Assembly: GCA_951828515.1 (NCBI GenBank)
Contig: OX639992.1
Location: 1,826,008-1,890,007, forward strand
Origin: an uncultured Poribacteria bacterium
GTDB taxonomy: Bacteria; Poribacteria; WGA-4E; WGA-3G
Direction: 5' to 3'
DNA length: 64,000 bases
The first letter of the stretch is position 1; each line of letters opens with the position of its first letter. Below are positions 12,651 to 29,273 of the stretch, piece after piece. The position numbers were made by a program, and so were the translations under genes. The notes under the pieces were generated by a model that was given only the letters and a program-made list of their open reading frames with translations, did not search any database and was not told the DNA's origin.

Positions 12651-14635
12651 CTCTTAGCGAGATACTTGGGGTTTGATCTGATGCTGGGTGGATAGCGGAT
12701 CTCCCATACCTTAACGAGTGCTTTCGCGAAATTGTTTGTGGGATAGATAGGTACAAATGCGCTGCTCGGCTCCCCACGCAGAAACGGAGCAGTAGTGGTT
12801 TCCTTTACGGTTAACATGAGATGGGTTGCCCTATGGGATCTCAGAAATTCTAATGCCTCGCGTTCGGTTTCAGCGAAGTTGATATGCTGTCGGTAGAGAG
12901 CTATCCAATGGGGTATGTAGTGGTCCTGATCAACAATGGTTTTGACCCCGGCGAGGACATTGAGTTGACTTCCATGATTCCAGTGCGCGGCAACAACAGC
13001 ATGCCCGGGTAGATTGCCTTTCATCCAATCAAACGCCTGCGCGAGGCTGCCTCTCCCCGGTATAGCCCTGCGAGATTTGATAGCGGCAGGTAGTGCCCGG
13101 TTTGCGTGCCCTCCGACAGGTGCATAGAACAGAATTAGGGTTAACATCAAGACAGGGATTGCTGTTCTTAATAGAAGCTGCGGGACACGGTGTTTCACTT
13201 TATTGGCATAGAAAGTGGCTAAGAACAAGAGGAGGTCTGCGGTAAAGAAGGCGATGGATATCCCGACAAAAAAATTGTAGCGTTTCGCATCCCGTGCCAG
13301 TGCTACCCAAAAGAGAAACCATAGGGTAAATGCAACATAGATGAATTCATTCTTAACAGCACTTCGTCGTCGCCAGGCAAGCACAAGGAATCCAATGACG
13401 CAGGTAGCAACCGCAATACCGAACTCAATATTAACAATGGATGTTCCCAAAAGCGGATCAAGCACACTGCGGTAAAAGGTTGTTCCCGTGAACAGGACCA
13501 GTGGTGCGGCGAACACCAGTCCTTGCCATTTCCAAAAGCGGAAGAGTGCCATAGCAATACCGAGACTCCCCAACACAAAAACACTACCGTAATGCGTCAT
13601 CCAATAGGCAAGAAAAGTGCTTTCCAGTTCCTCAATGCTTTGCATGAGTGCGCTTTGACTGAAAGGCACAGTGGTATCGGTAAGGGTTTTGGACTGCATG
13701 AGGATATAACCGAGTGCGAGCATGATGCTGGCAAGGGTTAATCCAAACGCAAGGGTGCGTGCGTGGAGACGAAGCCAATCAGCGAAAGGTCTCTTTGTGA
13801 TGAGAAGGTGGCGGAGGTAACGGATAACTAAAAGGGCGATCGGTGGGACAAGCATCAGGGCGGCGATGTGCGTTGAAAAGCCTTGCCCGCTTCGATACGC
13901 AGGAGATACAAGATACAGGGGTGGCACGAAGATGCAGACCCAGATGAGATATACCTCTAATCTGTCTTCTGTTTCGGAGGTGAGAAACCGCCATATCTCA
14001 ACCAATAGAATGATACTGAGAAAAACGCCGAAGCCTTCCCAACTGACACCCCCAAGGAACATAGCGAAACCACTCGCGAGTGTCCATAAAAGACACTTAC
14101 GTAGCTGTTGCGATTGCAATGAAGCGAGATAGGTTGTGACGGTGAGGATACCGAGCAGGAGGCACCAGCTGTCTCTATCTCCAAAACCGGCAGTGCTGCG
14201 GTTAATCGCGCCCGGGAGTGTTGCCAGAAGCACACCAACGATGCTTGAAAAGAGAATACCGAAAGTGCGATAAAAAAAGAGACAGAGCGCCCCAAGTCCA
14301 CTGCAGAACCAGACAACGGGTGTGTAGACAGTAACGTGATAGAGTGTAACCTTCGGGAATACCCACGCGATCCCTTTGTGAACGTAGGCGAGGACGTATC
14401 CGTAGAGATTGAGGGTTTGCGTTAAATCTCTACCGAGTGGCAGCCATCGGTTCATATCCCGTTCTGGCAACTTTCCGTTTTCGGAGATGAGCTGCGCCTG
14501 CCAGTAGTAGAAGTAACCATCTGATTCGGTTAGCTGTCCAGCGGGGACATTTGTGATTCCTTGCAGCCGAATGAAAGCGGCAAGGCATAGGATACCGACA
14601 ATCAGAAAGATCGCACTTAATTTTTGTATCTTCAT
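12635..14635 (-). CDS. STT3/AglB/PglB-type oligosaccharyltransferase-like GT-C membrane protein
   Basis: 666 aa polytopic protein. Its first external loop [12 protein letters not shown]....[14 protein letters not shown] parallels eukaryotic STT3 EFDPYFNYR...DDRAWYPLGR. A later [10 protein letters not shown] sits where WWDYG would be. Confidence 0.6.
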
Positions 14636-14776: not shown

Positions 14777-15025
14777 TTAGTGGCAGGTATTTTCATATTC
14801 ACCACAAGCCTGCTCCGTGTTGTCTTTCGCACTTTCACACCGCTCTGCATTCCCACTGGCACACGCAATACTTTCATTCTCTTGTGCATCACTACACGCC
14901 TGTTGAAGGCTACTACAGTCACTAGCTTCTGCTTTCTGTAACATCCCGTGAAACGTCCCGAAACCAAATGTGAGTGCGAAGATGAGGACGAGGGCTGGAA
15001 TACTTGCAATCAATGTAGATTTCAT
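14777..15025 (-). CDS. small secreted Cys-rich protein
   Basis: 82 aa with a signal peptide (MKSTLIASIPALVLIFALTFG), 6 Cys in an acidic C-terminal half, and an AAGGAG RBS. Confidence 0.4.
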   Translation of the reverse strand: MKSTLIASIPALVLIFALTFGFGTFHGMLQKAEASDCSSLQQACSDAQENESIACASGNAERCESAKDNTEQACGEYENTCH

Positions 15026-15268
15026 GTTTTATTTTCTCCTTTTTCCGCCCCTTGATGGCGCGGAGATTTTACTAAAATATTCCGAACATGCTAAGGCACA
15101 TTCAATATATATCTATGAGCAATTTACATGCCAATAGCAAGAAGCCATACCGTTAGGGGATCTCGGCAAAATACAACTCTGCATATTTTGCGCACTCTGA
15201 AAATTTTACATACCTGACCCTGCATATTTTTCATAATTCCATAAGACGCATGCACCTAATGCAGAATA

Positions 15269-15857: not shown

Positions 15858-18731
15858 TTAATTATCGCGCTGAAAACGGAATATCCCATTATGTTCTGTA
15901 CCGACGTAAAGTGTATTACGATCAACAGCAAGGGAGGTAACTGTGTATGGTATTTCTGGAGCAATTTGTTTCCAAGTGTTCGTTCGGCTATCTACTTGAT
16001 AAACCCCGCTGGCACATACACTGTAAAGGGTTGAGCCATCCGTCGCGATCTGATCCATAAGGAGTGGACACCCGTCAGTATCGGTGAGTGCATGCCAGGT
16101 TTCACCCTCGCGTGAACGCATCACTCCTGCGTCCGTTGAGATGTAGAGGGTTGAACCTACAAAGAGAATGTCTTTGTAGTAAGCAAACGGAAAGGCGAGG
16201 CTTTGGGTAATGTTCTTCCAAGTATTTCCACCATCCAGAGACCGGAAGAGGTCCCCCTCTCGTTTACCGGCATAGATGGTATCGTCCGAAGCGGCAAGAG
16301 CGAAACCTGTCTTAAGAGGTGAGATTTCTCCACCATCTTCCAAACCGGTGTGGTGCCACTCCGTCTCGCCGGGTCGCCACCTGAAAAGTTTCCGTCGGTG
16401 TTCCATAAAAACGGCTTCCCCGACGAGGGTAAAACTCCCGTTTGTTCTGTCTTCTGTCAGGAATAAGTTCTCGTCCCATAATTGTTCCGCTTCACGATCC
16501 CTGACGTTTGTTTCTCTGGCTTTTTGGAGCCTCTTCTGCAATTCAGTGTAGAGATCGTCTTCCTCGAAATCCGGCATACCTGGAACTGGTATCAGGGCAT
16601 CACTGCTAACGGGAAGGTAAAAAAGTTGCGTCCGATTACCGGGAACACTGCTGAGATGGAGAGTTGTATTGCTTGTCTGTATCTTTGGATAGACCAGAAG
16701 TTTACCTTCACTCTCCACGTTAAGGGTCTCCCAAGATTCACCACTGTTTTTTGATTTAATAATCTCTCCACCGGTGACTGCATAGAGAGCGTTTTCGACG
16801 GAACTTAGATTTTGAACATTGAAATTCGCGATCCCTGTTACAAAGGGATGCCATGTGTCCCCTCCATCCGTCGAGCGCGTTATTCCGCCGTAATAGGTTC
16901 TGTAAAAATTGTTTTCGTCCAACGCGATAGTAGGAGAAGCTCCAAATGCATGTCGGTCATTTCCAAGATACATCCACGTCTCACCGGCATCATAGGAGCA
17001 TAATATTCCACCAAAACTTATTAACAGAATCTTTTTCCCGATTGGGACGACTCTGACTGCGACTCCCATCTCAGGGGTATGCGGCGTAATATCGGTCCAT
17101 GAATCGCCGAGGTCGGTCGAATAGAAGACTTGGGCTTCAGGACCATGCCGTCGATTTATGCTCGTCCCGACGTAGAGCCTCTCCTCGGCAACTGCCAAGG
17201 ATTTAATACCGTGATCAGTCGGCACCGGCAATTTTTTCCAATTACCGGACAATCGGAAAAGCCCCCGACTCGTTCCGACAAAAAGCGTGTTATCAATGGC
17301 AAGCGCGTCCCGAATATGGAACTCGAAATCACCATCTTCCCGGACAATATCGGATCGCAAGACATGTCCTATGAATTCCCACTGCTTCCCAGCATCTTCG
17401 GAACGAAACACTTCGGTTCTGAGGACGAGGTACATCGTCATATCAGCATTCCCAGACTTGTGTTGCTGAGTGCCATCGGTAATCACCAATGCGACAGGAC
17501 GTCCCTCGGGGCGTGAGCCGAGAACACTCCAGGTTTTACCCCTATCCGTTGAGGCTAAAAGTTCATCGGATGTCAGGAGATAGAGGGTATCCCGGTATTC
17601 TGTCATGACCTTGCTGAATTCTCGCTTCGGACCGCTGGCACTGACAAGTGTCCACGCGTCTGTCTGTGGTGTGAATCGGTAGAAGCCGGGTTTCGCAACA
17701 GCATAGAGGGATTGGTCAGCGGCGAGAAAGAGTCCGGGATATGAAACCTCCCCTGTTCCGTTCGCTTGAATCCATTGCGGTTTCGCGGCGCGAGCGTCTG
17801 CCTCCTTGGGAGGCAAGGTAGCAAGCAAGTTGGGTCCCGGTTGTTGTCCGGCGCCTGTATTTTTGCCGAGCGTATCGGTGTTTCCGAATTGGTTTCTGAC
17901 ATCAGGCTTTAGTTTCAACGGAAGCACAACGGGTGCCTCAACGAATTCAATTGTCATCTCCGATGTTGCGTCTAAACTGTAAGGTTGCTGGAAACGATAC
18001 AGCGCACGTGTACCCACACCAATCATTAGAAGAATGAGAAACGTTGATGCGAAGGAAAACCCCCAGGGCACCCAAGGTTTACTTGCAGAAGGGGCAGTCG
18101 GCTGGAGACGAGCGATTTCTCGCATGACGTTCGCAGTCAGGGTCGACGGTGCTTGGAAAATACCGGAGACATCGTGGAGGAGGTGTTCTTGCGTTTTCAA
18201 TCGCTTGCGAGCCCGGTGGAGCCGACTTTTGATGGTGTTCGGGGATACACCCAAAAATTCACTAATCTTTTCACACGGCATCTCTGCGAGATAGTGCATC
18301 GTTACAACCGTGCGTTCGCTCTCTGGCAGTTTTTGGAGAAGACGCTTGACAAGGTCGCGCTGGTGCTCAACGTCTGCAGCTTCAGCACCTGTTGCCTCAT
18401 ACGCTGCATAGGAGAGTTCCGCCAGTTGGACCCCGGGCATCGCATCCAGAGATGTCGTTGGCTCCTGTTTCTTCCGCATCCACGCGATACACTGACGCGC
18501 CGCAATTACATAAAGCCACCCGAGAAAATGATACGGGGGTTTCAGGAGCGACAACTTTTTGTAAGCTTTCAGGAAAATATCTTGTGTGAGCTCCTGGGCT
18601 GTGTGAAAGTCGCCGATCTTCCGCCACACAAAGGTGTGGATCGGTTTCTGGTATCTGTTGACAAGCACGGTAAAAGCGTTGTCGTCTCCCTCTAAAACCC
18701 GCTGAATTAAGTCAAAATCATTGGTCTCCAT
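15858..18731 (-). CDS. ECF sigma factor fused to transmembrane anti-sigma-like segment and large BNR/Asp-box repeat (beta-propeller) extracytoplasmic domain
   Basis: N-terminal sigma-70 region 2 (DLIQRVLEGDDNAF...) and region 4 (ESERTVVTMHYLAEMPCEKISEFLGVSPNTIKSRLHRARKRL). One TM helix (WGFSFASTFLILLMIGVG). At least 8 Asp-box motifs S/TxDxGxTW (STDRGKTWS, SEDAGKQWE, STDLGDSWT, SYDAGETWM, STDGGDTWH, SKNSGESWE, SLDGGNTWK, SREGETWH). Confidence 0.75.
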   Translation of the reverse strand: METNDFDLIQRVLEGDDNAFTVLVNRYQKPIHTFVWRKIGDFHTAQELTQDIFLKAYKKLSLLKPPYHFLGWLYVIAARQCIAWMRKKQEPTTSLDAMPGVQLAELSYAAYEATGAEAADVEHQRDLVKRLLQKLPESERTVVTMHYLAEMPCEKISEFLGVSPNTIKSRLHRARKRLKTQEHLLHDVSGIFQAPSTLTANVMREIARLQPTAPSASKPWVPWGFSFASTFLILLMIGVGTRALYRFQQPYSLDATSEMTIEFVEAPVVLPLKLKPDVRNQFGNTDTLGKNTGAGQQPGPNLLATLPPKEADARAAKPQWIQANGTGEVSYPGLFLAADQSLYAVAKPGFYRFTPQTDAWTLVSASGPKREFSKVMTEYRDTLYLLTSDELLASTDRGKTWSVLGSRPEGRPVALVITDGTQQHKSGNADMTMYLVLRTEVFRSEDAGKQWEFIGHVLRSDIVREDGDFEFHIRDALAIDNTLFVGTSRGLFRLSGNWKKLPVPTDHGIKSLAVAEERLYVGTSINRRHGPEAQVFYSTDLGDSWTDITPHTPEMGVAVRVVPIGKKILLISFGGILCSYDAGETWMYLGNDRHAFGASPTIALDENNFYRTYYGGITRSTDGGDTWHPFVTGIANFNVQNLSSVENALYAVTGGEIIKSKNSGESWETLNVESEGKLLVYPKIQTSNTTLHLSSVPGNRTQLFYLPVSSDALIPVPGMPDFEEDDLYTELQKRLQKARETNVRDREAEQLWDENLFLTEDRTNGSFTLVGEAVFMEHRRKLFRWRPGETEWHHTGLEDGGEISPLKTGFALAASDDTIYAGKREGDLFRSLDGGNTWKNITQSLAFPFAYYKDILFVGSTLYISTDAGVMRSREGETWHALTDTDGCPLLMDQIATDGSTLYSVCASGVYQVDSRTNTWKQIAPEIPYTVTSLAVDRNTLYVGTEHNGIFRFQRDN

Positions 18732-19573: not shown

Positions 19574-20251
19574 CTAAAAAAGTTGCTGGGCTGCCTGGAG
19601 GCGTTCGGGAGAGCCGATATCTATCCAATCGGGGTCGGTTTTAAGAACATGAAGGTTTTCTAATTTCGGAAGGACATCGTAGGAGAGAGAAAACACGTCG
19701 CTATCGGGAAACGATCGAGCAATTTTGCTGTTGAAGAGGTAGACACCGGCATTGATATACCCACTTTGGTATGTGGTAGGTTTTTCCAGGAATGCCGTAA
19801 TCTGCCCTGTATCCGAAGAGATGATTTCACCATAAGGACGGGTGTCATCCACCCAAACAGATAGCAGTAAACCTGCCATGTCCTCTCGAAATGTAGATAC
19901 CATTTCGTTGAGCGAGAAATCTCGCCACAGGACATCCCCGTTCAACACAAAGAACGGGGAACTCTGTATGTACCGCATTGCGTTTTTGATAGCACCCCCG
20001 GTGTCAAGTTTTTTATCTTCTTTACAATAGCGAATGGAAATGCCATTGTAAGACTCTCCGATGGTGTATTGGAGCACATCATGGAGGTGCCCAGTCGCGA
20101 GGATGAGTTCTTGGACTCCAACTTCCTTCAGGAATTCACACTGCCATTGTAGAATAGAACGGTTTTTGATTTTTAGGAGAAGTTTGGGGGTATGTTTGGC
20201 GGTGGCCCCCAGGCGAGTCGCATGTCCACCGCATAAAATGATTGCTTGCAT
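19574..20251 (-). CDS. sugar-phosphate nucleotidyltransferase (NDP-sugar pyrophosphorylase family)
   Basis: MQAIILCGGHATRLG N-terminal nucleotide-binding motif; 225 aa. Confidence 0.75.
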   Translation of the reverse strand: MQAIILCGGHATRLGATAKHTPKLLLKIKNRSILQWQCEFLKEVGVQELILATGHLHDVLQYTIGESYNGISIRYCKEDKKLDTGGAIKNAMRYIQSSPFFVLNGDVLWRDFSLNEMVSTFREDMAGLLLSVWVDDTRPYGEIISSDTGQITAFLEKPTTYQSGYINAGVYLFNSKIARSFPDSDVFSLSYDVLPKLENLHVLKTDPDWIDIGSPERLQAAQQLF

Positions 20252-20269
20252 AAATCTATCACCCTTGGT

Positions 20270-20296
20270 GGCGAGGTTAGGAAACCTCGCCAGCGG
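20270..20296. repeat. REP-like hairpin GGCGAGGTTAGGAAACCTCGCCAGCGG
   Basis: Same family; sits between the cytochrome-fusion gene and the nucleotidyltransferase gene. Confidence 0.65.
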
Positions 20297-20443
20297 TTGA
20301 ATGGTCCAGAATCTAAAGCGGTGTTGGCTTCGGGTTCTCTGAGGGTCCAGGCATCGGTTTGGGATCTGGAATGGGCTTCACGATTCCCATTTTCCAACTC
20401 ATAATTTTTCCTCCTTTCTAAAAAATGCATCTGTTTGCGGATT

Positions 20444-22294
20444 TTATTGACACGGTGTGCCGCTTGCCCGCAACAGCTGGTTTGCTCGAAATTGGTGGTT
20501 ATCAACTAAAATCGTAGGAGAGGCTCTAATGCCCAATTCCGCGGCACGTTTTATGTTCTCTCGGAAAAGTTGTTCTGCTTCCGGACTGTCAAATAGTGCT
20601 TGAATCTTCGCGACATCAATGCCGTATTTCTCAGCACAGTCCTCCCAACTCTTGTCCAGTTTTTTGCCGCGGCACAAAATATAGTCGAGATACTTATCAG
20701 GATACTCTCTCGCTATCAGTAACTGCCGAATGTTCTCTGCCACTTCGGGGTAGCCGTGTAGACTGGTGAACGGTGTTACCTCTTGGAGAGAAACAGTCTC
20801 TTTCTCTTGGGCGATAAAGCGGAGTTTAAAGTCAATTTTATCGCCAAACTCCTTCACGATCGGAATAATTTTCTCCTCCGCCTGAACACCGAATGGACAG
20901 TAACTCATTACAAAAAGTTCCAAGGTCGGTTTTCCCATTCGGGAAACCCGAGATGTCAATAATTCCTCAAGGTTCATCGGTTGGCGGCTGTGGTCCACAT
21001 CTTTGGTGTGGAGTGCTACCACTTCTGCAAACCCAGGCGAATGTTTTGTGTCGTGGCACGTAAGACAGAGCGATGTCTCAGCGGCGCGTCGGATATTCTC
21101 TTTCTTCGGATTGCCGACGTGTTGTTTGCCGGGACCGTGGCACGTTTCACATTGCACACCCTTAAAGGTCGATGTCTCATCACCAATCTGAAAACCTGTC
21201 TGGTAACCGAAGCCGGTCGTATGACAGGAAACACAATTCGGATTGAAGTATCGCTCTTTTTTCAACAGCGTTTCAAAAGCGAAAGCATGCCGTGTTGCAG
21301 ACCACTGGAGATATTCTTGCTCATGGCACCGCTGACAGGCAGTCGCTGATACATATCCGTTTTGCGGATCTTGTTCCAGTGGTTGTTCGGCAAAAAGGGG
21401 TTTGTGTTCAGACGATTGGGCAACCTCGCGGTAAAAATCGGTGAGCAACTGGCGCACGGATTCATCTTCTGGGACATCCCCGGTCAGTGCAAGTTGTGCG
21501 GCATGGTGTTGGGTTAGTTCACCGTCTGCATTCACCCAGAGTGCCAAAAAACCGAGTGTTTTCCCCTCAGATGTTGAACCTGCCCAAATCGGTGCGTTCA
21601 TCTGTTGAGTGGGTTCCACCTCTTCAGGACTGATGATGACATCGATATTAGGATGTTCCGTTGAGTTGGGTGTCCCTAAGGCAATCATCAGATTTGTATT
21701 TGGAAACTCTCGCTCAGTTGAAACGGGAACAACGGCAATTGAGAGTTCACCAGCAGTTTGAAGAATAGACGGTTGAGCGTAGGCGTGATTCTCATCAAGA
21801 AATGGGAATGATGCCGCAGCACGTCGCTCGATGAGATACGCATCTCCATAATTGAGGTCGTTTTGACTCAGCGCGATAGCGTCGTATCCCATTATGGACA
21901 TCGCTTTTAGATTTACCTGACACCTCTGTGTATCTATATCCTCGGTGCCATCGAAAATATCTCCAGCGTCAACCAAGAGCGTTGGAACGCCTTGTTGGCG
22001 GATTTGTGATATAAGGAAAGCACGCCTTGGCAAGCCACCGGCTTGTTCTTGATAGCATCCACACGGTTCCAGATGGCTTTTCGTGGCACCTGTATAGAGT
22101 ATCACGACAGAAGGTGGATCTTCACCTTCAAAGAGTGCGATAACGCTTTCAAAGGTTTCACCAATCGGTTGCCGTGCCTGTTGCTTGATTTCCTGAATCT
22201 GTTGCTGTCTGCGGGATTCCGCCCAATGTGTATATAGTGGTGGGACCCCGATAACAAGCGTTAGTAGAATTAAAGTGACGATAGCAAGCTTCAT
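20444..22294 (-). CDS. multidomain secreted/membrane-anchored protein: degenerate 5'-nucleotidase/metallophosphatase-like domain + tetraheme cytochrome c + C-terminal CPFG domain
   Basis: N-terminal hydrophobic anchor. VVILYTGATKSHLE...LLVDAGDIFDG...SQNDLN follows the 5'-nucleotidase pattern (ILHTNDHHS...LLDAGDQFQG...GNHEFD) with the His/Asp ligands replaced. Four CxxCH motifs (CQRCH, CVSCH, CETCH, CLTCH). C-terminal ~200 aa has SYCPFG. Its start is 2 nt from the upstream gene stop. Confidence 0.6.
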   Translation of the reverse strand: MKLAIVTLILLTLVIGVPPLYTHWAESRRQQQIQEIKQQARQPIGETFESVIALFEGEDPPSVVILYTGATKSHLEPCGCYQEQAGGLPRRAFLISQIRQQGVPTLLVDAGDIFDGTEDIDTQRCQVNLKAMSIMGYDAIALSQNDLNYGDAYLIERRAAASFPFLDENHAYAQPSILQTAGELSIAVVPVSTEREFPNTNLMIALGTPNSTEHPNIDVIISPEEVEPTQQMNAPIWAGSTSEGKTLGFLALWVNADGELTQHHAAQLALTGDVPEDESVRQLLTDFYREVAQSSEHKPLFAEQPLEQDPQNGYVSATACQRCHEQEYLQWSATRHAFAFETLLKKERYFNPNCVSCHTTGFGYQTGFQIGDETSTFKGVQCETCHGPGKQHVGNPKKENIRRAAETSLCLTCHDTKHSPGFAEVVALHTKDVDHSRQPMNLEELLTSRVSRMGKPTLELFVMSYCPFGVQAEEKIIPIVKEFGDKIDFKLRFIAQEKETVSLQEVTPFTSLHGYPEVAENIRQLLIAREYPDKYLDYILCRGKKLDKSWEDCAEKYGIDVAKIQALFDSPEAEQLFRENIKRAAELGIRASPTILVDNHQFRANQLLRASGTPCQ

Positions 22295-22296
22295 TG

Positions 22297-23445
22297 TTAA
22301 AAAAACCTATTTATAAGGGAGATTATCCCGAGGTGAAAGGGACCTTTACAGAGCACTGTTAACAATCCGCCGAATGTAATAACAGGTGCAAAACGAATCG
22401 CGGGTTGAATCCGAATCTTGTTATCAAAGTGTGCAAACGCGTTTTCTTTAACTAAACTCTGCAATTCACAGATTGTTTCGGCGGAAAGCCCGACTGGATC
22501 AGTTGTTATGAGCTCGGCACCTTGGCGTTCATTTCTATCCATCTGTTTCTCATAATGGGCACGACCATCCTCGCCTTCCTTTTTGACGATGTGTTCACTG
22601 AGGATCATCCCTACTTGGAGGTGTGACACTTCAATTATTCGATCAAATGCCACACTCGCTAACTGAAGCACGAGCTGCTTCGCTACCACAAAAATGAGTA
22701 GGTAGAAGCCTACAGAAAAGGCAATTCCTACCAGCAGCAGCCCGATGGAGGGGGCAGATTTCAGCATCAACCACCCGCTGAAAAATAAGATGACAACAAC
22801 AGCAGTTGGCGTTTTCAGCAAGGGACCCAAAACCTTTTGCATACCGGCAAAAACGAACAGGACTAATACGAGTCGCATCACTTGATCCAACTGCCAACCC
22901 AAACTATTGAAAAGGTAGGTAAGTCCTGCTCCAATAAGGATAAACTGAAGCAAACCATAGAGTTTCTCTAACAGGGAATCCCGATCAACGGAGGATTTGA
23001 TGAGTTGAATGAGCACTGCCCCTGTCCCCCGGACCCTGATTAACTTTACAATGAGGTAGCCTATTGCCACGATTGTGTAGGGAATGATGATATTGAGTGC
23101 CAATACTACCGGTGGAAACATTGATATCTCTTGTATAGGACCAAACCACCATGAAGGTAGTATTAAACAAAGCCCCCAGAATAACTTAGAGTCGCCGGGT
23201 GAAAAGACACCAAACGTATAGAGTCCGATGGCGATCGCACCACTAACCACAAATAGGATTGCAGCGTTCAAAGGAGTCGTAAGCCCCATAAAACAACCCG
23301 TTATTTGACCGAGGGTGCCTGCGTAAATGAGGCACATTGAACAGAGATTTGGTATTTTGTGGGTCTTTATGTCTGCATAACTTGCATAACCACAGAAGGT
23401 AAGAGCTATAGATAGAAGAACAGTCTCATAAATGAATGTGTTCAC
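22297..23445 (-). CDS. A24-family prepilin peptidase-like membrane protein with long C-terminal extension
   Basis: Both catalytic Asp motifs of A24/TadV/CpaA peptidases are present: ADIKTHKIPN (D-x5-IPN) and FSPGDSKLF (GxGD-KL). The ORF is 382 aa against ~170 aa for CpaA, with extra TM helices and a soluble C-terminal region. GTG start with a GGAAG RBS. Confidence 0.6.
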   Translation of the reverse strand: MNTFIYETVLLSIALTFCGYASYADIKTHKIPNLCSMCLIYAGTLGQITGCFMGLTTPLNAAILFVVSGAIAIGLYTFGVFSPGDSKLFWGLCLILPSWWFGPIQEISMFPPVVLALNIIIPYTIVAIGYLIVKLIRVRGTGAVLIQLIKSSVDRDSLLEKLYGLLQFILIGAGLTYLFNSLGWQLDQVMRLVLVLFVFAGMQKVLGPLLKTPTAVVVILFFSGWLMLKSAPSIGLLLVGIAFSVGFYLLIFVVAKQLVLQLASVAFDRIIEVSHLQVGMILSEHIVKKEGEDGRAHYEKQMDRNERQGAELITTDPVGLSAETICELQSLVKENAFAHFDNKIRIQPAIRFAPVITFGGLLTVLCKGPFHLGIISLINRFF

Positions 23446-23595: not shown

Positions 23596-23892
23596 TCAAC
23601 TCGAGCGACACACATTTATCACTTCGCGGATAACCCTTGTGACAAAGTCGTTTTCAACTGGATCCCAAACCCAGTCTGTACCTACAGCGACTACCTTTTC
23701 TACATACTCATTCCCAGGCCCACAATCACCATCGTTATTGCACTCATCTGCATACGCTGATGAATTAAACACGATAGCTTGGACAAGCATGAGCCCTCCT
23801 GTAGCAATACTAAGAGTCAATGGTGTTTTTATACCTACACGGCCTTCCTCAGAATTGAGAAAGTCTTGAATTTTCGACTTGAGATTTTTCAT
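23596..23892 (-). CDS. small protein, paralog 1: conserved N-terminal leader (MKNLKSKIQDFLNSEEGRVGIKTPL), hydrophobic segment, Cys-rich C-terminus
   Basis: 98 aa. The first ~45 aa are ~80% identical to 25235..25522, and the shared C-terminal motif is C-[ND]-N-D-x-x-C-x-P-G-N. The upstream 60 bp is conserved between the two copies. Confidence 0.55.
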   Translation of the reverse strand: MKNLKSKIQDFLNSEEGRVGIKTPLTLSIATGGLMLVQAIVFNSSAYADECNNDGDCGPGNEYVEKVVAVGTDWVWDPVENDFVTRVIREVINVCRSS

Positions 23893-23986: not shown

Positions 23987-24988
23987 CTATGGTTGTTTTA
24001 GATATCCCCACGACGTTGTCAGCAAATGAACTTGTGGGTGTACAGGCAACGCTCGTGGATCAAACCAACTCCCGAGGCTATTCACCCCTTGATGTGTCAG
24101 TTGCTTTGTCGATCGACGTGTGATATCAACTCTGAAGAGGTGTCTCTGCTCGTCAACCTTCTTTTCATAGAGGAGTTCAGTGCCATCAGGGCTCCACAGA
24201 GGGTGTCTCGCATATCCACCCGCTCTGGAGACGATCCGTTTCCTCTGTGTCCCATCGGGTCTCATAATATGAATCGTGGCCATATCGACTCGATCCAGAA
24301 GCCATGGAGCATCGGAAAAGGCGATCCATTCCGCGTCTGGAGACCATGAAGGGTACTTGTGACGTAAATCACCCAGAGACACTTTCCTCCGGTTCTGCCC
24401 TTCTGGCGAGATGAAAATGAGGGGGTAGCCTTCTCTTTCTTGTTGTGCGAAATTCGCTGCTGCAAAAGAGAAAACGATTCTCTCACCTTCTGGGGACCAC
24501 GCAGGTTGCCCGCCAAACTCCCCTGCGATAGCAAGCGGTTTTTCGTTTTTTCCATCAATGTCAGCTATGTAAATTGCCTCATCATGGTATCGGAAGTAAA
24601 CAATCCCTTTGCCATCAGGGCTCCATGCCGGTGCTGATCTGTCCGCTGCACTTCTAAAAACTCGTTTTACATTCTGACCATCCGCATCCATAAGGAACAC
24701 ATCTCGCTGACCGTCTCGATGAGACACAAAGAGAATATGTTCCCCTGTCGGTGAAAAGACGGGGGCATAATCGCGAGACAAGTGTTGTGTCAATTGGGTC
24801 ACTTCACTGCCATCGGGGTTCATGAGATAGATGTCCAGATTCCCTGTTATATCGGAGGCGAAGACAATCTTCGCTGTTTTCGGGGCTTTTGCCCAAGTCA
24901 GATCCAAAACACTGAAAAAAAACGATACGCAGAAAACGTAGAACATCAAAAGGGTAGGTTTCTTCATAAGTTTCTTTTCTGATAGCAA
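23987..24988 (-). CDS. TolB-like periplasmic beta-propeller protein
   Basis: Signal peptide, then repeated PxWSPDG blades (APVFSPTGEH, APAWSPDGKG, QPAWSPEGER, YPSWSPDAEW, HPLWSPDGTE). Start is either a TTG at 24988 with an AGGAG RBS or the ATG at 24967. Confidence 0.7.
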   Translation of the reverse strand: MLSEKKLMKKPTLLMFYVFCVSFFFSVLDLTWAKAPKTAKIVFASDITGNLDIYLMNPDGSEVTQLTQHLSRDYAPVFSPTGEHILFVSHRDGQRDVFLMDADGQNVKRVFRSAADRSAPAWSPDGKGIVYFRYHDEAIYIADIDGKNEKPLAIAGEFGGQPAWSPEGERIVFSFAAANFAQQEREGYPLIFISPEGQNRRKVSLGDLRHKYPSWSPDAEWIAFSDAPWLLDRVDMATIHIMRPDGTQRKRIVSRAGGYARHPLWSPDGTELLYEKKVDEQRHLFRVDITRRSTKQLTHQGVNSLGSWFDPRALPVHPQVHLLTTSWGYLKQP

Positions 24989-25234: not shown

Positions 25235-25522
25235 TTATTGGCAAAATGTATGTACTTCAACGATGTCTTCCACAACATGTCCTCGCATCGGACAAAAGAT
25301 CTCTTGAGTCCCAACAACAATTGTGACCGTTTGGCAGGTCTGGTTTCCAGGACATTGGGAGTCATTATCGCAAACTCTCCCAGCATCCGCATCGGGGGCG
25401 GTCATCGCTTGTGCAAGCAGAAGTCCACCTGTGGCGACACCGAGGGCTAGGGGTGTTTTCACGCCAACACGCCCTTCTTCGGAAGTCAGAAAGTCACTAA
25501 TACGCGACTTAAGATTTTTCAT
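25235..25522 (-). CDS. small protein, paralog 2: conserved N-terminal leader (MKNLKSRISDFLTSEEGRVGVKTPL), hydrophobic segment, Cys-rich C-terminus
   Basis: 95 aa, with an AAGGAG RBS and 5 Cys in the C-terminal half. Paralogous to 23596..23892. Confidence 0.55.
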   Translation of the reverse strand: MKNLKSRISDFLTSEEGRVGVKTPLALGVATGGLLLAQAMTAPDADAGRVCDNDSQCPGNQTCQTVTIVVGTQEIFCPMRGHVVEDIVEVHTFCQ

Positions 25523-25572: not shown

Positions 25573-27207
25573 TTAACCGGAACGGTTAAGCCCATTTCCA
25601 GCAAGAGGTACCTCGCGCTGGAAGTGCTTGAAAACAGATTCAACTTCGGCAGGGGTATGGTGTTTGGACAATACTTCTGCTAAAGCGTTTTCAAGGCGTT
25701 CAAATCGGTTTGTCTCCTGCCGATAGACACTCGGATAAGCCATTCCGGTTCTCGGGTCATAGTATCGGCAGAACAGGGGCTGACACAGGGATAGAGGTGT
25801 TGATGATTGGCAGCGTGTATTGGCACGCGCTGAACCTTGCTTAAACAGCCTCACAATCTCCTGAGCGGTGCGTTCCCACGTATATTTTGCTACGAATCCT
25901 TTTGCTACCTCCCTATACTTTTCGCATCTTTCCGTGTCACTTAGTAATTGGTTTATAGTTTCAGATAGATGCTGCATTGGAACCTCCAAATCGTTTCCTT
26001 TTCCAGCAGGACACTGGACAAGTACTCCCGCACCCTCAATTTCCGGCGGTAGTCCATATTTTGAAATCACAACTGCAGGGGTCCCGTATGCCATTGCTTC
26101 CAAAACCAATGAGGGGGAAGTCCCTGGTACAGCAGGGAAACAAACGACATCCAATGCTTGGAAGAATATGGGCAATACTGATCGCGTGCTTTCGTCACTT
26201 GCGTTGAAGATCACCAAGTTGCTCAGCGGATTCCGATATGCGTCAGCCAAAATTGAGTCGTAGACAAAGAAAACAAGGTGTGGGTTTGCAGTCGCGATAT
26301 CCAAGATATTCCGCATTCCAGCGTTTGGTTCAAATCCCGAAATAATACCCACCACGGGCCTCTGTGCAAACAATGGATTATCTGTAAGCACGGCAGCGTG
26401 TTGCTTGGCTAATTCTTTCCCGATAGGTTCAACGACATTGATGCCCTCTGAAATTGTGTGCACCCCTGCAGAGTCCACCCCGAATTCTGAGAGCCAGTCG
26501 GTAAGCCATGTAGCTTTGGACAGAATTAAATCTGTGGATTTCTGTGCCGTGTACGAATTCAAAGCAGATTCAAGGATTAAGGCTTGCATTCGTCTGTCAC
26601 TCTCTAAACAGCGAAGGACCGGCAGATTTTTAGAATAGTATAGGATATCGTGACTTGGAAATTGTCCAAGCAGTAAGATACCATCGTAGCCATCCATTGC
26701 ATACCAAGGGAACCAGAAATTTGAATGCTTCTCAATTATATCGCGATTTGATACGAACCCTCCAAAATCATGTCCCGGCTCCCCATTGATGTTGAAAGTT
26801 TCTAATTCCGCCAGTTTTGAGAGTGCTACCAATAGATGGAACCGGTTCTCGTTTGTTACAGGGTCCTGAACACTTTTTTCTGGAACAAACTGAAAGGGAA
26901 CAAGTAATTTGAGTCTCCTATCTGATTGAGAAGGTATGTAAGTGCTCCAAGTAGGACTTGACAACTGTCCCCGTTGACTGAGCCGTTGCAACCGTTCAAT
27001 GCCTTCAAAAATCTGCTCTATTTTGAATTTCGATCTTAACCTCTCAACAGTTGCATAAAGTGTTTCAGTGAGATTTTGATCAAGGAGTTCCCATTCCACA
27101 TCGTTAATTTCAACAATAGTATCAGATTCTAAGTCAGCGGCGTATTTTCGCCCCGACTGCTCAAATTTGCGGTGTTGATGCACTCGATATCTTGTTTCTA
27201 CCTTCAT
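25573..27207 (-). CDS. GT4-family (GT-B) glycosyltransferase with N-terminal PqqD/RRE-like domain
   Basis: C-terminal PAVPGTSPSLVLEAMAYGTPAVV is the GT4 E-x7-E region. The N-terminal ~90 aa (YAADLESDTIVEINDVEWELLD...IFEGIERLQRLSQRGQL) follows the PqqD pattern v.eLN..a..iw.l.dG..t..ei...l...y...eI..Dv..fl..L...GlL. Confidence 0.7.
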   Translation of the reverse strand: MKVETRYRVHQHRKFEQSGRKYAADLESDTIVEINDVEWELLDQNLTETLYATVERLRSKFKIEQIFEGIERLQRLSQRGQLSSPTWSTYIPSQSDRRLKLLVPFQFVPEKSVQDPVTNENRFHLLVALSKLAELETFNINGEPGHDFGGFVSNRDIIEKHSNFWFPWYAMDGYDGILLLGQFPSHDILYYSKNLPVLRCLESDRRMQALILESALNSYTAQKSTDLILSKATWLTDWLSEFGVDSAGVHTISEGINVVEPIGKELAKQHAAVLTDNPLFAQRPVVGIISGFEPNAGMRNILDIATANPHLVFFVYDSILADAYRNPLSNLVIFNASDESTRSVLPIFFQALDVVCFPAVPGTSPSLVLEAMAYGTPAVVISKYGLPPEIEGAGVLVQCPAGKGNDLEVPMQHLSETINQLLSDTERCEKYREVAKGFVAKYTWERTAQEIVRLFKQGSARANTRCQSSTPLSLCQPLFCRYYDPRTGMAYPSVYRQETNRFERLENALAEVLSKHHTPAEVESVFKHFQREVPLAGNGLNRSG

Positions 27208-27216
27208 TTTACAACC

Positions 27217-28926
27217 TCACGCTGTCGCTTGAATAAAGCCGTAGCATCTCGCAAGTATCGCCTTCGCGGTATCCTCATCTTCAATGAGTTCACTAAGTAT
27301 TGTTTCCACTTCCCTGACGGTATGTTCTTTGAGAAGGCTAATAACCAATCCGTCCTCAACTTTCTGGTTAAAAATTCCGTAGGGATTTACAAGCATTTCA
27401 TATCGCGAATTCATATTGAGTACTATGGACTTCTGTTCTAACCGTTTCTGATGGGTGTTCCAATAAGATGAAAAAAAAGTGTTGAGTCGATTTTCACAGA
27501 ACAATTTCTTTTTCCAATTGAGTTCCGAGAACAAGTCAAGGATACGTTGCGCTGTTTTCTTCCAAGTGAACGTTTGTGCGCGATTCAGTGCCTTTTGAGC
27601 GTAGGCTGCTCGTAGGGAATTGTCGTTTAGCAACAGATTTACCCCTTCCGAGAAGTCAAGTGGAGAAGCATAACTGGCAATGCTCGTGATGTCCTGTTCA
27701 AAGGGAACGGTAGGAACGATCAAACCCGCATCTCCCACGACAGAAGGAACACCATCAAAATCGGAGATGACCGGTGGTACACCGCACGCCATTGCTTCAA
27801 GCACTGTTAATCCGAATGTCTCCTCGCCAGACACGGAAGGGAAACAATATACATCAAAGGCGTTGTAAATCAGCGGTAATTTTTCACGATCATAGAATCC
27901 GATATAGATAAGGTTCTCGGGAATTTTTCGCTGTGCGTATCTACCCTCATTCTGACCCGCCTGCAAAAAGAGAAGATGTGGGTTGAGTTCTGCCAACTTC
28001 AGGTAGATAGATGCCCCCTTTTCAGGTTGGAAACGAGAGAGGTAACCCACGGTGGGCATTGTTTTAATTCGTTCATCTCCTACGCGTTTCGCGAGTTCAT
28101 TCTTTGCCTGTTGTTTATCCATTGGACGGAATAAGTTTAAATCTACACCATTTGCGACAGTATTGAAAACACCTTTATCCCAGACGAACTGGGAATAAAA
28201 TTCGCCAACAGAATCTGTAGGTGCCGTGAAGGCATCATAATCCCGTAGAGCAGTATAGTGTAACAATACAGAACGCACGTTTGTACCACCATGTCCACCC
28301 ACCGAATGCACTTGCATTAGAATCGGAGGGAGTTCGGGACATCGGAATAGTGGGATGAATCCTTCTTGGCTACGGTCAGAGTGGATTGTAAGGATACCTT
28401 CATATTGCGAAGCAATCTTTTCGGGTATACGCACCATGTCGAGCAGACTCAAATCCACTTCGTAGAAATTCTCGCCAAGTTTTCTGTTTTGTGTGCCAGC
28501 AAAGTGAAGTACTGCCTGGTCTTTCAGAGCCTGAATAGTATAAGCGAGAGCAACATGGGTCCCAGCACTGGTATTTTCTATGTCTGAAACAGCATCGGGA
28601 GCCAACCCCTGGACCACCAATAAAAAATGTGGACAATCTCCTTTTTTGAAAAATAATACGTCGGATTTCTCACCACGATTAAGGAGTAAACCCCGTCCCA
28701 CATATTCGATCAATGTCTCAAATGCTTCTTCAATATCACCATCACTGTAAGCGGTTTTTAATGTCTCTATAATTTCCTCTGTCGTCCGTGTCTCCGCGAG
28801 TTTCAGAACATCAGCAATCGCAGCAGAGATTTCGACGAGACTTGCTTTATCCAAGTCTGCGGCGTAAAGTCCACCATCTTTTTCAAAAATATGGAGTTGA
28901 TGAAGAGGTTTCGGAAAATCAAGCAT
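27217..28926 (-). CDS. GT4-family (GT-B) glycosyltransferase with N-terminal PqqD/RRE-like domain (paralog)
   Basis: PSVSGEETFGLTVLEAMACGVPPVISD is the GT4 motif. N-terminal LYAADLDKASLVEISAAIADVLKLAE.RTTEEIIETLKTAYSDGDIEEAFETLIEYVGRGLL is PqqD-like. Start uncertain (ATG at 28926 or TTG at 28950). Only 10 bp separate it from the downstream paralog. Confidence 0.7.
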   Translation of the reverse strand: MLDFPKPLHQLHIFEKDGGLYAADLDKASLVEISAAIADVLKLAETRTTEEIIETLKTAYSDGDIEEAFETLIEYVGRGLLLNRGEKSDVLFFKKGDCPHFLLVVQGLAPDAVSDIENTSAGTHVALAYTIQALKDQAVLHFAGTQNRKLGENFYEVDLSLLDMVRIPEKIASQYEGILTIHSDRSQEGFIPLFRCPELPPILMQVHSVGGHGGTNVRSVLLHYTALRDYDAFTAPTDSVGEFYSQFVWDKGVFNTVANGVDLNLFRPMDKQQAKNELAKRVGDERIKTMPTVGYLSRFQPEKGASIYLKLAELNPHLLFLQAGQNEGRYAQRKIPENLIYIGFYDREKLPLIYNAFDVYCFPSVSGEETFGLTVLEAMACGVPPVISDFDGVPSVVGDAGLIVPTVPFEQDITSIASYASPLDFSEGVNLLLNDNSLRAAYAQKALNRAQTFTWKKTAQRILDLFSELNWKKKLFCENRLNTFFSSYWNTHQKRLEQKSIVLNMNSRYEMLVNPYGIFNQKVEDGLVISLLKEHTVREVETILSELIEDEDTAKAILARCYGFIQATA

Positions 28927-29273
28927 ATTTTTTGTCTCTATATACAACAAACTGAATCAACACATTATTTTATTTCAACTCGAAGAATGCCAATTCTTGA
29001 AATAATGCTCTGTTACAACGACAGATATCTCTAACGAATTTTTTACGTATCACTCAGCATTCTCTATGTTGCAATTCCCGTGCCAATTGGAAGAACCCAC
29101 GCCGTTCGTGAATTTTAGGAAAATGGGACTACGCAAATTTTTCGCAGTCGGCAAATTTTGCATACCGAATCTCTGCAGATATTGCAGAGTTCCAAAAGGC
29201 AGTGGCACCGGCGCGCGATATATCGGGGACGAACACTATGGTAAACTTTAGAATTAACTGTACACTCTGCACC

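Follow-up and report, generated by a model that had tools for sequence, protein, structure and literature searches.

The window that we analysed, a 64,000-nucleotide stretch of a contig from an uncultured Poribacteria bacterium, carries a gene whose 616-residue product consists, in order, of a membrane anchor, a CxC-containing 5′-nucleotidase-like domain, a tetrahaem domain, a GILT/DsbA-like domain and a tail cysteine (see table). The window holds no paralogue of this three-domain gene. It follows, after a gap of only 2 nt (...TAA CA ATG...), the gene for an A24-like aspartyl (prepilin-type) peptidase, and no Shine-Dalgarno-like sequence precedes its ATG. The initial annotation had noted this coupling, and it was right both in the sequence of the gap and in the nature of the neighbour: the peptidase scores 26.0 bits against Peptidase_A24, just under the cut-off of 26.5, with a weak Arc_PepC match and no NCBIfam match, but it has both A24-type aspartate motifs, YADIKTHKIPN (D25) and SPGDSKLF (D85), which are kept in six cassette paralogues.

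Table. Features of the three-domain gene, its product and its neighbours, by position in the window.
Feature	Position	Strand	Remarks
Three-domain gene	20444..22294	-	ATG start, 616 aa, no longer alternative ORF
N-terminal hydrophobic segment MKLAIVTLILLTLVIGVPPLYT	22229..22294	-	residues 1-22; hydropathy 2.1 over residues 1-19
5′-nucleotidase-fold domain without dimetal site	21395..22120	-	residues 59-300
PCGC (P77 C78 G79 C80), proposed redox centre	22055..22066	-	invariant in 150/150 three-domain proteins
Tetrahaem c554-like domain	20975..21382	-	residues 305-440; Cytochrome_C554 match
Four CxxCH	21323-21337, 21221-21235, 21137-21151, 21053-21067	-	residues 320, 354, 382, 410
GILT/DsbA-like thioredoxin-fold domain	20447..20959	-	residues 446-616
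Monothiol C466-P-F-G	20888-20899	-	C466 invariant across 150 proteins
C615, candidate mobile tail cysteine	20450..20452	-	penultimate residue, invariant; role inferred
A24-like aspartyl (prepilin-type) peptidase	22297..23445	-	382 aa, polytopic; upstream gene
Small exported Cys-rich protein 1	23596..23892	-	98 aa; candidate substrate; leader MKNLKSKIQDFLNSEEGRVG, then hydrophobic stretch
PD40/TolB-like beta-propeller protein	23987..24988	-	333 aa; PD40 E 1e-24
Small exported Cys-rich protein 2	25235..25522	-	95 aa; candidate substrate
GT4 glycosyltransferase pair	25573-27207, 27217-28950	-	each roughly 550 aa; Glycos_transf_1
Sigma-54 promoter consensus TGGCACGGGAATTGC	29071..29085	-	perfect; ~120 nt upstream of first GT4 gene
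NTP_transferase gene	19574-20251		nucleotide-sugar gene in cluster
Sigma-54 activator-like ORF	11742-12605

The two small Cys-rich proteins of the window are 47% identical to each other. The sigma-54 site could possibly be the promoter for the entire same-strand gene string; a single such site is only suggestive, as nine matches at one mismatch or fewer were found where 3.65 were expected. A 29-aa Pro-rich ORF downstream of the three-domain gene is also conserved, and in one other locus (L001) it lies upstream of the NTP-transferase gene, unlinked to the three-domain gene.

Nine further Poribacteria loci were looked up and compared with the window, the paralogues of the three-domain protein being 32-85% identical. 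The gene sits in a recognisable cassette in all nine loci, as it does in the window, and the A24-like gene likewise is present in 9/9. Every cassette encodes members of a small Cys-rich protein family (82-107 aa, 3-8 Cys) with a Flp-like leader, F[IL]xxEEG[RK]VG, and beta-propeller genes (PD40; WD40 or Kelch in L086 and L167) adjoin these small proteins in all but one of the nine loci, L168 having a Laminin_G_3 gene instead. The GT4 pair recurs in L001, L004, L085, L086, L167, L168 and L169, and a GHMP kinase is found in L003, L085, L167 and L168. Literature searches on Poribacteria with multiheme proteins, DsbA or prepilin peptidase returned nothing relevant.

The same three-domain architecture recurs in over 230 protein clusters from Candidatus Poribacteria (32-93% identity). 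These comprise at least 120 clusters of close homologues (70-93%), nearly all full-length (615-644 aa) and drawn from many independent assemblies, plus over 110 clusters of paralogues (32-47%); a profile scan of metagenome contigs with the three-domain profile gave one full-length three-domain locus only (L087). Across an alignment of 150 three-domain proteins, with identity down to 32%, the interdomain linkers and the C-terminus are conserved. The initial annotation had asked whether the fusion recurs in homologous loci, or whether a frameshift had joined genes that are separate in relatives. A frameshift or assembly fusion might be suspected, given that in other phyla DsbA is encoded on its own, downstream of the two-domain gene, but the breadth of the architecture, together with the conserved linkers, led us to reject an artefact, to which we give only a negligible probability.

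The AlphaFold2 (AF2) model of the 616-aa protein has a mean pLDDT of 83 and a pTM of 0.76. It predicts a helix from residue 2 to residue 40, and the conserved helix thus continues past the hydrophobic segment to about residue 40, with conserved juxtamembrane residues P18, Y21, E26, R29, L30, I33, K37 and A40. Residues 1-22 are probably an uncleaved signal anchor, which would place the remainder of the protein in the periplasm.

The motifs on which the initial annotation had based its reading of the protein all lie in the translation: ILYTGATKS at residues 65-73, EPCGCYQEQAGG at 76-87, SQNDLN at 143-148 and CPFG at 466-469. Its three-part anatomy of a nucleotidase-like module, four CxxCH sites and a thioredoxin-like C-terminal domain is also upheld, by domain matches and by conservation. 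Of the families that it had suggested for profile searches, Cytochrome_C554 and DsbA were matched; Metallophos and 5_nucleotid_C were not, and the isolated N-terminal 308 aa gave no Pfam match of any kind even at E 10. The N-terminal domain was instead identified by NCBIfam, by PDB sequence search and by fold search, and it has the alpha/beta sandwich fold of the calcineurin-like metallophosphoesterase/5′-nucleotidase family. The proposed loss of its metal ligands was confirmed by mapping on CD73, where D36, H38, N117 and H118 are replaced by A70, K72, Q144 and N145, and by the corresponding columns in the 150 relatives, which hold N/S/G, Q/K, Q/K/D and A/T/P. CD73 D85 does align with D112, but this column is mostly Gly in the family, and the dimetal motifs DxH, GD and GNH[ED] are absent from the domain. 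No hydrolytic activity is expected, because the dimetal ligands are replaced, Metallophos is not matched, and the substrate-binding C-terminal domain of the nucleotidases is swapped for a tetrahaem domain.

In this N-terminal domain the segment E76-P-C-G-C80, with Q84, G87 and R91, is absolutely invariant in the 150 three-domain proteins; PCGC is kept in 119/120 close homologues. The initial annotation had taken the CGC as an insertion, a view that did not hold: motif I is followed by a loop that contains the CGC, and CD73 has a Cys-bearing loop there as well. The first two domains match the NCBIfam model NF041198 (UshA_like_PCGU), UshA-like (seleno)protein, at 220.3 bits (E 4.2e-65), below its curated cut-off of 275 bits, and nine other relatives likewise fall below the cut-off, at 165-255 bits. 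The match covers both domains and extends through the haem domain to position 516 of the 519 in the model. As in NF041198, a PCG-U/C motif (here EPCGC at 76-80) follows the first beta-strand, and the nucleotidase-like domain is followed by one with four CxxCH. By sequence, then, the three-domain protein is related to NF041198 without being an equivalog member, and its PCGC corresponds, with Cys for Sec, to the PCG-Sec motif of the selenoprotein family. In six genome loci of relatives from other phyla (L011, L014, L038, L063, L070 and L077) an in-frame TGA stands at the second Cys codon; SECIS-like hairpins after the TGA were clear in only two of these six (z about -3), and the Sec assignment is based on the conserved reading frame and on NCBIfam and literature annotation. 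A ‘COG0737 UshA-like, CxU’ selenoprotein family was described by Zhang and Gladyshev in 2008 (PMC2398784) and is listed also in PMC9312934 and PMC13188914; its members are among the more abundant marine selenoprotein families, listed since 2008 with no function assigned (PMC2398784, PMC13188914).

Relatives have Sec in place of the second Cys, as is typical of redox-active sites (PMC2398784; PMC13188914). We therefore favour a redox role for the CGC, and the invariance of E76-C80, Q84, G87 and R91, taken with the Sec at the C80 position in relatives, suggests that the CGC region is a catalytic redox site. The initial annotation had suggested that the N-terminal module might be a non-catalytic binding domain; this is probably not so, since a known selenoprotein family has a CxU redox motif to which the CGC corresponds as its Cys form. 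A related idea is that the degenerate nucleotidase domain is a pseudoenzyme, which serves only to attach the cytochrome and the thioredoxin-like domain to a partner or a nucleotide-sugar. Both the lost metal ligands and the nucleotide-sugar genes of the cluster (the NTP_transferase gene in the window and the GHMP kinase genes in other cassettes) would fit this, but such docking explains neither the absolute invariance around the CGC nor the Sec in relatives, and the nucleotide-binding C-terminal domain of the 5′-nucleotidases is missing, so that we consider it very improbable.

The tetrahaem domain matches Cytochrome_C554 (PF13435) at 59.8 bits (E 5e-16), well above the gathering cut-off of 20.8, and in the PDB it matches cytochrome c554 (1bvb, E 3.7e-9) and 6i5b (E 2e-15). 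Its four CxxCH motifs are far beyond chance, as even one CxxCH arises in only 1% of residue shuffles. All four are invariant, along with H336, H392, H418 and H435; as these four invariant His can act as distal ligands, haem ligation by a Cys is not indicated. Residues 365-377 fall below pLDDT 50 in the AF2 model, which was made without haems. In all likelihood this domain stands where nucleotidases have their substrate-binding domain.

The C-terminal domain has a thioredoxin fold with an inserted helical domain; its scores against both DsbA (PF01323) and GILT (PF03227) are above the Pfam thresholds, and its closest fold is that of GILT, so the thioredoxin-like character put forward in the initial annotation stands. 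The active site of GILT is CxxC and its signature is CQHGxxEC. The CxxC of DsbA and GILT is absent here, the site being C466-P-F-G469 (CP[FY]G in 117/120 close homologues), and the Cys-containing GILT signature is also absent, with only the HG..E core kept, in the SLHG..E motif (SLHGYPEV). The domain also has a loop of S592-P593-T594. In 150/150 proteins the last Cys is found 1-3 residues before the C-terminus, and in 139 of them it is the penultimate residue; the final block of the AF2 model has a pLDDT of 49. This invariant cysteine had been missed by the initial annotation.

We conclude with high confidence that this is a membrane-anchored periplasmic Poribacteria protein, whose first two domains are related, as a Cys form, to the UshA-like (seleno)protein family, and that to these a monothiol GILT/DsbA-like domain and a penultimate tail cysteine are added. 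The initial annotation had called the fusion unusual as a whole. The pairing of a 5′-nucleotidase-like with a tetrahaem domain is not so, being found in thousands of proteins from many phyla; what is special in the Poribacteria protein is only the added GILT-like domain and the cassette.

Neighbours of the two-domain relatives in other phyla suggest what the shared core may do. A classic CGHC DsbA gene lies directly downstream on the same strand in 5/80 two-domain loci (Nitrospinota, Nitrospirota and Thermodesulfobacteriota), a gene for a Thioredoxin_7 (CRYC)-HEAT protein takes the same position in seven Planctomycetota loci of these 80, and in two Latescibacterota loci a GILT-like domain is fused, adjoining signal peptidase I. 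DSBA, Thioredoxin, Thioredoxin_7 and Redoxin are among the most frequent families in 133 immediate neighbours. Related parts also occur in a haem-free architecture, a CxC domain followed by two GILT domains (P0183, PCDC), and longer Poribacteria paralogues have added glutaredoxin/DCC-like domains. When 812 ORFs from these loci were clustered all against all, no family recurred in more than 9/80 loci, and hence there was no conserved neighbourhood for the broad two-domain family; thioredoxin-fold genes are the sole recurrent link across phyla. As neighbours are not conserved outside these thioredoxin-linked subsets, the module may in general act on something other than a protein thiol. That a thioredoxin-fold partner is fused in Poribacteria, and is encoded by a separate adjoining gene in other phyla, nevertheless favours a thiol-redox function.

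We tentatively propose, at somewhat under an even chance, that the three-domain protein is a haem-linked thiol-disulfide oxidase for the Cys-rich exported proteins of its cassette. We infer the topology of the protein, its substrates, the order in which its cysteines act and the direction in which electrons flow, along the following lines. The small exported Cys-rich proteins would undergo processing by the neighbouring A24-like peptidase and, probably, glycosylation by the GT4 pair. Their cysteines would exchange with C466 of the GILT-like domain; the mixed disulfide would be resolved via the flexible tail Cys C615; electrons would pass to the C78-G-C80 centre and leave via four bis-His haems to a periplasmic cytochrome or terminal oxidase. 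The role of DsbA and that of its re-oxidant would thus be combined in one polypeptide, with haems replacing the quinone of DsbB/VKOR. The initial annotation had suggested disulfide or thioether chemistry on Cys-rich substrates: the disulfide part is the one best supported by the conserved context, and nothing found supports the thioether part, there being no radical-SAM, lanthipeptide or similar thioether-chemistry genes in the window cluster. Points against the oxidase mechanism are that the second active-site Cys is missing from the GILT-like domain, that the Cys counts of the two small proteins of the window are odd (3 and 5), and that direct electron transfer from a dithiol to c-type haem without flavin or quinone is uncommon.

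Electrons might instead flow in the opposite direction, from the respiratory chain via the haems and the CGC to the GILT-like domain, which would then reduce or isomerise wrong disulfides in a DsbD/DsbC- or GILT-like role. GILT, the closest structural match of the C-terminal domain, is a reductase; monothiol CP[FY]G suits isomerase or reductase chemistry through mixed disulfides; bis-His haems often are of low potential; and among the two-domain relatives, many, Sec forms included, come from anaerobic lineages, and TlpA/Redoxin-type neighbours occur. Against this, the protein encoded separately alongside in five loci is a CGHC DsbA of the classic type, which usually acts as an oxidase, the many-Cys small cassette substrates must acquire disulfides before these can be corrected, and sponge-associated Poribacteria are generally described as aerobic heterotrophs. 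We regard the reductase direction as unlikely. Also rather improbable is that the CxC/CxU centre acts on an inorganic or metalloid substrate (polysulfide, thiosulfate, selenium species, arsenite or a soft metal ion), with the haems as an electron wire and the thioredoxin-fold domain in an accessory role like that of SoxW/SoxS in the Sox system. The dimanganese ligands of SoxB are absent, no sulfur, selenium or arsenic metabolism genes were found in the window cluster or the nine Poribacteria cassettes, and what recurs, fused or as a neighbour, are protein-thiol oxidoreductase folds.

Returning to the proposed oxidase, the Poribacteria fusion, the adjoining DsbA and thioredoxin genes elsewhere and the Cys-rich cassette all point to haem-wired protein-thiol redox chemistry, and thus give an orphan family a directly testable hypothesis. 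It is possible, if doubtful, that the CxC/CxU and tetrahaem module represents an unrecognised disulfide-generating class, which re-oxidises DsbA/GILT-type domains into c-type haems without quinone or flavin. If so, this would place a third way of making periplasmic disulfides alongside DsbB and VKOR, and would give a first function to the widespread UshA-like selenoprotein family. In Poribacteria, the multi-copy cassette would then mature glycosylated, disulfide-bonded, prepilin-like surface proteins; the analysis flags in these sponge symbionts an undescribed multi-copy cell-surface cassette of A24-like peptidase, Cys-rich proteins with Flp-like leaders, beta-propellers and GT4 pairs.

Compared with known systems, the protein shares with NF041198 a 5′-nucleotidase-like N-terminal domain with PCG[U/C], in which the Sec column is identical, followed by a four-CxxCH c554-like domain; it differs in being a Cys form with a membrane anchor, a 170-aa GILT-like domain and the tail Cys. 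Unlike UshA, CD73 and SoxB, it has its dimetal ligands replaced and a tetrahaem domain in place of the substrate-binding C-terminal domain. Like DsbA, which works with DsbB or VKOR (PMC11208910), it has a DsbA-superfamily domain that is periplasmic, bears an SPT loop of the cis-Pro type and needs a re-oxidant; in contrast to DsbA it has CPFG in place of the active-site CxxC. The three-domain protein contains nothing like DsbB/VKOR, and where those systems use a quinone-reducing membrane protein the proposed re-oxidant here is a soluble CxC domain with c-type haems, on the same chain. The C-terminal domain differs from GILT (mouse GILT, 6nwx) in being bacterial, periplasmic, monothiol (CP[FY]G) and fused to a cytochrome, and in the absence of the signature cysteines.

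In the mitochondrial Mia40-Erv1-cytochrome c relay, the CxC (CPC) of Mia40 oxidises client cysteines and the electrons end on cytochrome c; the Poribacteria protein, if it acts as we propose, would be a bacterial functional analogue of this relay and an alternative to DsbB/VKOR. A mobile C615 would similarly have functional analogues in the GCUG arm of mammalian thioredoxin reductase and the GGCGG arm of SoxY, where a Cys or Sec only a few residues from a flexible C-terminus shuttles between redox centres. The protein has no kinship of sequence or fold with Mia40-Erv1, thioredoxin reductase or SoxY, and it would work without a flavin and with all its parts in one polypeptide.

The three-domain gene starts two nucleotides beyond the stop codon of the A24-like peptidase gene (...TAA CA ATG...), with no Shine-Dalgarno-like sequence between that stop and its own ATG. 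Its product contains 15 cysteines by sequence count: C78 and C80 in EPCGC, C125, the eight of four CxxCH haem sites (residues 320, 354, 382 and 410), C466 in CPFG, C541, C553 and the penultimate residue, C615. Only 1% of residue shuffles of the protein yield even one CxxCH. Residues 1-22 are strongly hydrophobic and form the beginning of a long helix (2-40) in the structure model; we infer that they are an uncleaved signal anchor, which would place the remainder in the periplasm, the compartment in which c-type cytochromes and DsbA-like domains function.

The initial annotation was correct as to the two-nucleotide gap, the four haem sites and the single-Cys CPFG of a thioredoxin-like C-terminal domain. 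Of the domain searches that it proposed, those of the haem and C-terminal parts found Pfam families, namely Cytochrome_C554 (E 5e-16), DSBA/Thioredoxin_4 and, for the isolated C-terminal part, also GILT (33.5 bits vs a cut-off of 22.4); the N-terminal 308 residues had no Pfam match, even with the threshold relaxed to E 10. Among NCBIfam models, the 519-position NF041198 'UshA-like (seleno)protein' (model UshA_like_PCGU) spans the nucleotidase-like and haem parts at E 4e-65 and 220 bits, below its curated cut-off of 275 bits. We are highly confident of these domain identities.

A sequence search of the PDB aligned residues 59-194 with the 5'-nucleotidase CD73 (E 5e-8), such that ILHTNDVHS of CD73 corresponds to ILYTGATKS, DAGD to DAGD and GNHEF to SQNDL. 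This bears out a 5'-nucleotidase-like module with replaced metal ligands: D36, H38, N117 and H118 of CD73 have become A70, K72, Q144 and N145, and D85 is retained as D112, in a column that is mostly Gly in the family-wide alignment. With the metal site lost, a non-catalytic role for the protein could be considered; we hold it to be very improbable. Whereas 5'-nucleotidases have a substrate-binding C-terminal domain, here the tetrahaem domain takes that place, following helix 278-294 (Pfam match and structure model); this suggests that the haems would be turned toward the former active site, the present location of the CGC.

At least 120 clusters of close homologues (70-93% identity) were found in a search of 5.8 billion proteins. 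Among the 120 listed, nearly every one is full-length (615-644 aa); PCGC is kept in 119, the four CxxCH likewise in 119, and CP[FY]G in 117. Those with a named organism are from Candidatus Poribacteria and bear the label 'hypothetical protein' or 'multiheme c-type cytochrome'. With a profile built from remoter three-domain representatives, more than 110 further three-domain clusters at 32-47% identity were found, all from Poribacteria where an organism is named; some share a contig with a close homologue. Thus Poribacteria carry the gene as a multi-copy family of paralogues. The conservation of the fusion in both sets, nearly always at full length in the closer one, rules out a frameshift or fusion artefact.

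In an alignment of 150 three-domain proteins, the invariant residues are T68, E76, P77, C78, G79, C80, Q84, G87 and R91 in the N-terminal domain; all four CxxCH with H336, H392, H418 and H435 in the haem region; and C466, the S592-P593-T594 loop and C615 in the C-terminal part. These four histidines could supply every distal ligand that four bis-His haems require. In 150/150 proteins the final Cys is 1-3 residues away from the C-terminus, in 139 of them as the penultimate residue; the model gives the tail a low pLDDT.

Beyond this family, HMMER run exhaustively against 1.84 billion representatives picked up 9,820 relatives (E up to 0.001). Their architectures include the xCGC domain with the tetrahaem domain (440-500 aa), the same with an extra N-terminal region (about 930 aa), with a GILT-like domain (610-680 aa), or with a GILT-like and further domains including glutaredoxin/DCC-like ones (900-1000 aa). 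Others are haem-free double GILT-like proteins (500-650 aa), such as P0174 and its relatives, with Cys-rich linkers between two CP[YF]G domains, and a second haem-free set in which a CxC nucleotidase-like domain precedes two GILT-like domains (P0183, motif PCDC, about 790 aa); P0187 and P0258 are further haem-free examples. Judging by these haem-free forms, the CxC domain and the GILT-like domain may also cooperate without cytochromes. When one genome per species was scanned, 397 relatives turned up across phyla (Latescibacterota, Planctomycetota, Acidobacteriota, Myxococcota, Nitrospinota, Nitrospirota, Verrucomicrobiota, Thermodesulfobacteriota and others). Every relative scored falls under the NF041198 cut-off (165-255 bits), so the curated model is restricted to a narrower clade.

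Of the 80 loci kept, six (L011, L014, L038, L063, L070 and L077) have an in-frame TGA after EPCG in place of the second-Cys codon, and the conserved GG..RRA resumes downstream. Judged by sequence, this is the PCGU selenocysteine form, in agreement with the 'COG0737 UshA-like, CxU' selenoprotein family of the GOS metagenomes (76 Sec and 92 Cys sequences; PMC2398784), which a 2026 review (PMC13188914) lists under NF041198 and to which neither paper assigns a function. Sec and Cys are equivalent at C80, and the two-domain family has Sec forms in MAGs that include Eisenbacteria, Myxococcota and 'Deltaproteobacteria'. Only L038 and L063, among the six loci, show a clear stable hairpin directly 3' of the TGA (z about -3).

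The neighbours of two-domain genes are mostly unconserved (no family in more than 9 of 80 loci), and thioredoxin-fold proteins are the one theme that recurs across phyla. A classic DsbA gene (CGHC; PF01323 E 1e-11) lies immediately 3' on the same strand in L019, L031, L037, L040 and L067, from Nitrospinota, Nitrospirota and Thermodesulfobacteriota; a Thioredoxin_7 (CRYC) and HEAT protein is encoded downstream in seven Planctomycetota loci; and in two Latescibacterota loci, where a signal peptidase I gene precedes, a GILT-like domain is fused. The most frequent families among 133 immediate neighbours include DSBA (5), Thioredoxin (5), Thioredoxin_7 (3) and AhpC/Redoxin (2); by our rough estimate, thioredoxin-fold proteins account for about 1% of the genes of a bacterial genome. 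Fusion in one lineage and adjacency elsewhere is a classic sign of functional partnership, and the partnership with DsbA and thioredoxin-type proteins is recurrent.

We compared the window with nine Poribacteria loci (L001/L002, L003, L004, L085, L086, L167, L168, L169), whose paralogues are 32-85% identical to the window protein. As the initial annotation had supposed, the neighbour is A24-like: a polytopic protein of 363-382 aa is encoded in the window and all nine loci, directly upstream of the three-domain gene in L001, L004, L085 and the window and no more than 8 kb away elsewhere, and both catalytic Asp motifs are kept (Y[AT]D[IML]xxxxIxN and G[VI]x[SA][PA]GD[SA]K). A GT4 glycosyltransferase pair (~550 aa each) is common to these loci except L003, where it was not seen; PD40, WD40 or Kelch beta-propeller genes number one to three, except in L168, which has a Laminin_G_3 gene instead; and sugar-activation genes (NTP-transferase, GHMP kinase) are frequent nearby. 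At the cassette edge, recurrently in the window, L001 and L168, ECF sigma factor regions 2 and 4 are joined to BNR/Sortilin-type beta-propeller repeats, an unusual combination of sigma factor and large propeller region in one protein, which may be a sensor-regulator of the cassette.

Each cassette also encodes one to four small proteins (82-107 aa) with a basic N-terminus followed by F[IL]xx[ED][ED]G[RK][VI]G, a hydrophobic stretch terminating at an AxA-like site, and a C-terminal part of 35-55 aa with 3-8 cysteines, 6 and 8 being the commonest counts. Their leader, which Pfam does not recognise, resembles those of Flp prepilins (FLKDESG|ATAIEYG), minus the EY motif. In nearly all of those compared (the window's two and the small ORFs of L001, L003, L004, L085 and L086) a Cys lies 0-5 residues from the C-terminus (TFCQ, VCRSS, GCVDV, ACVN, YCCA, GCVG, PEC), echoing TPCQ, the end of the three-domain protein with its penultimate Cys. 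Since a periplasmic thiol-disulfide domain is encoded beside their peptidase, these small exported proteins are its obvious candidate clients.

Building on the observed parts, their invariance and the cassette, we propose that the three-domain protein is a haem-linked disulfide-forming oxidase, a reading that is quite possible, if short of probable. Through C466, the monothiol GILT-like domain would react with client cysteines; the mixed disulfide would be resolved by the mobile C615; and the disulfide thus formed would be handed to C78/C80, a centre that the four haems could re-oxidise, passing electrons onward to the respiratory chain. The direction of electron flow is our proposal only, and its reverse, a reductase or isomerase role, we consider unlikely. 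Two weak points of the oxidase mechanism are the odd Cys counts of the window's two small proteins and the combination of two-electron and one-electron steps without a coupling flavin or quinone. Action on a small-molecule or metalloid substrate, in place of such protein clients, is more doubtful still.

The window has other features as well. The perfect sigma-54 site precedes the first GT4 gene by about 120 nt, in a same-strand gene string that ends with the three-domain gene, and an activator-like ORF also flanks the cassette in L085; with nine consensus matches observed vs 3.65 expected, this promoter link is suggestive only. The 82-aa ORF, just upstream of the STT3-like gene, may encode another exported Cys-rich, possibly glycosylated protein of the same regulon. 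The 29-aa ORF is preceded by a strong ribosome-binding site (AAAGGAGG); its peptide is 26/29 identical in L001, there upstream of an NTP-transferase gene and away from the three-domain gene. The GmrSD-type gene falls in the lowest-GC stretch (44001-46000, GC 0.40 vs about 0.48) and is likely a horizontally acquired defence gene; the TonB-dependent receptors are clear paralogues, each with an N-terminal CarboxypepD_reg-like domain.

Features of the window, with positions of one gene in two further loci
Feature	Position	Strand	Remarks
Three-domain gene	20444-22294	-	ATG start, 616 aa
A24-like peptidase gene	22297-23445	-	382 aa
Small Cys-rich proteins	23596-23892; 25235-25522	-	
ECF-sigma/BNR fusion	15858-18731	-	957 aa; L001 18935-21826; L168 4944-7874
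Sigma-54 promoter, perfect consensus	29071-29085	-	TGGCACGGGAATTGC
Sigma-54 site, one mismatch	15119-15133	-	precedes another small Cys-rich ORF
Sigma-54 activator-like ORF	11742-12605	-	
82-aa ORF (MKSTLIAS...)	14777-15025	-	signal peptide, 6 Cys; weak DUF6520 match
STT3-like oligosaccharyltransferase-like gene	12635-14635		TIGR04154 E 2e-14, far below cut-off
29-aa Pro-rich ORF	about 20313-20402	-	MSWKMGIVKPIPDPKPMPGPSENPKPTPL; directly 3' of the three-domain stop
GC-rich hairpin	about 20262-20284		GGCGAGGTT-TCCT-AACCTCGCC; 3' of the 29-aa ORF
GmrSD-type restriction endonuclease	43521-45422	-	GmrSD_N E 1e-37, GmrSD_C E 2e-22
Tandem TonB-dependent receptors	37638-40430; 40570-43368	+	930 and 932 aa

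The pairing of nucleotidase-like and tetrahaem domains is a known, catalogued and functionally orphan family. In the literature searched we did not find the addition of a GILT-like monothiol domain to the UshA-like family, the invariant tail Cys or membrane anchor of the three-domain protein, or the Poribacteria cassette. The canonical routes of disulfide formation (DsbB/VKOR) are described in PMC11208910. If haem-linked disulfide generation is true, an abundant selenoprotein family would gain a function and an alternative to these routes would be added. In functional terms, we take the relay to be akin to that of Mia40 (CPC), Erv1 and cytochrome c, and the tail to be comparable with the GCUG tail of mammalian thioredoxin reductase and with the GGCGG arm of SoxY, a sequence in which the relative P0123 itself ends.
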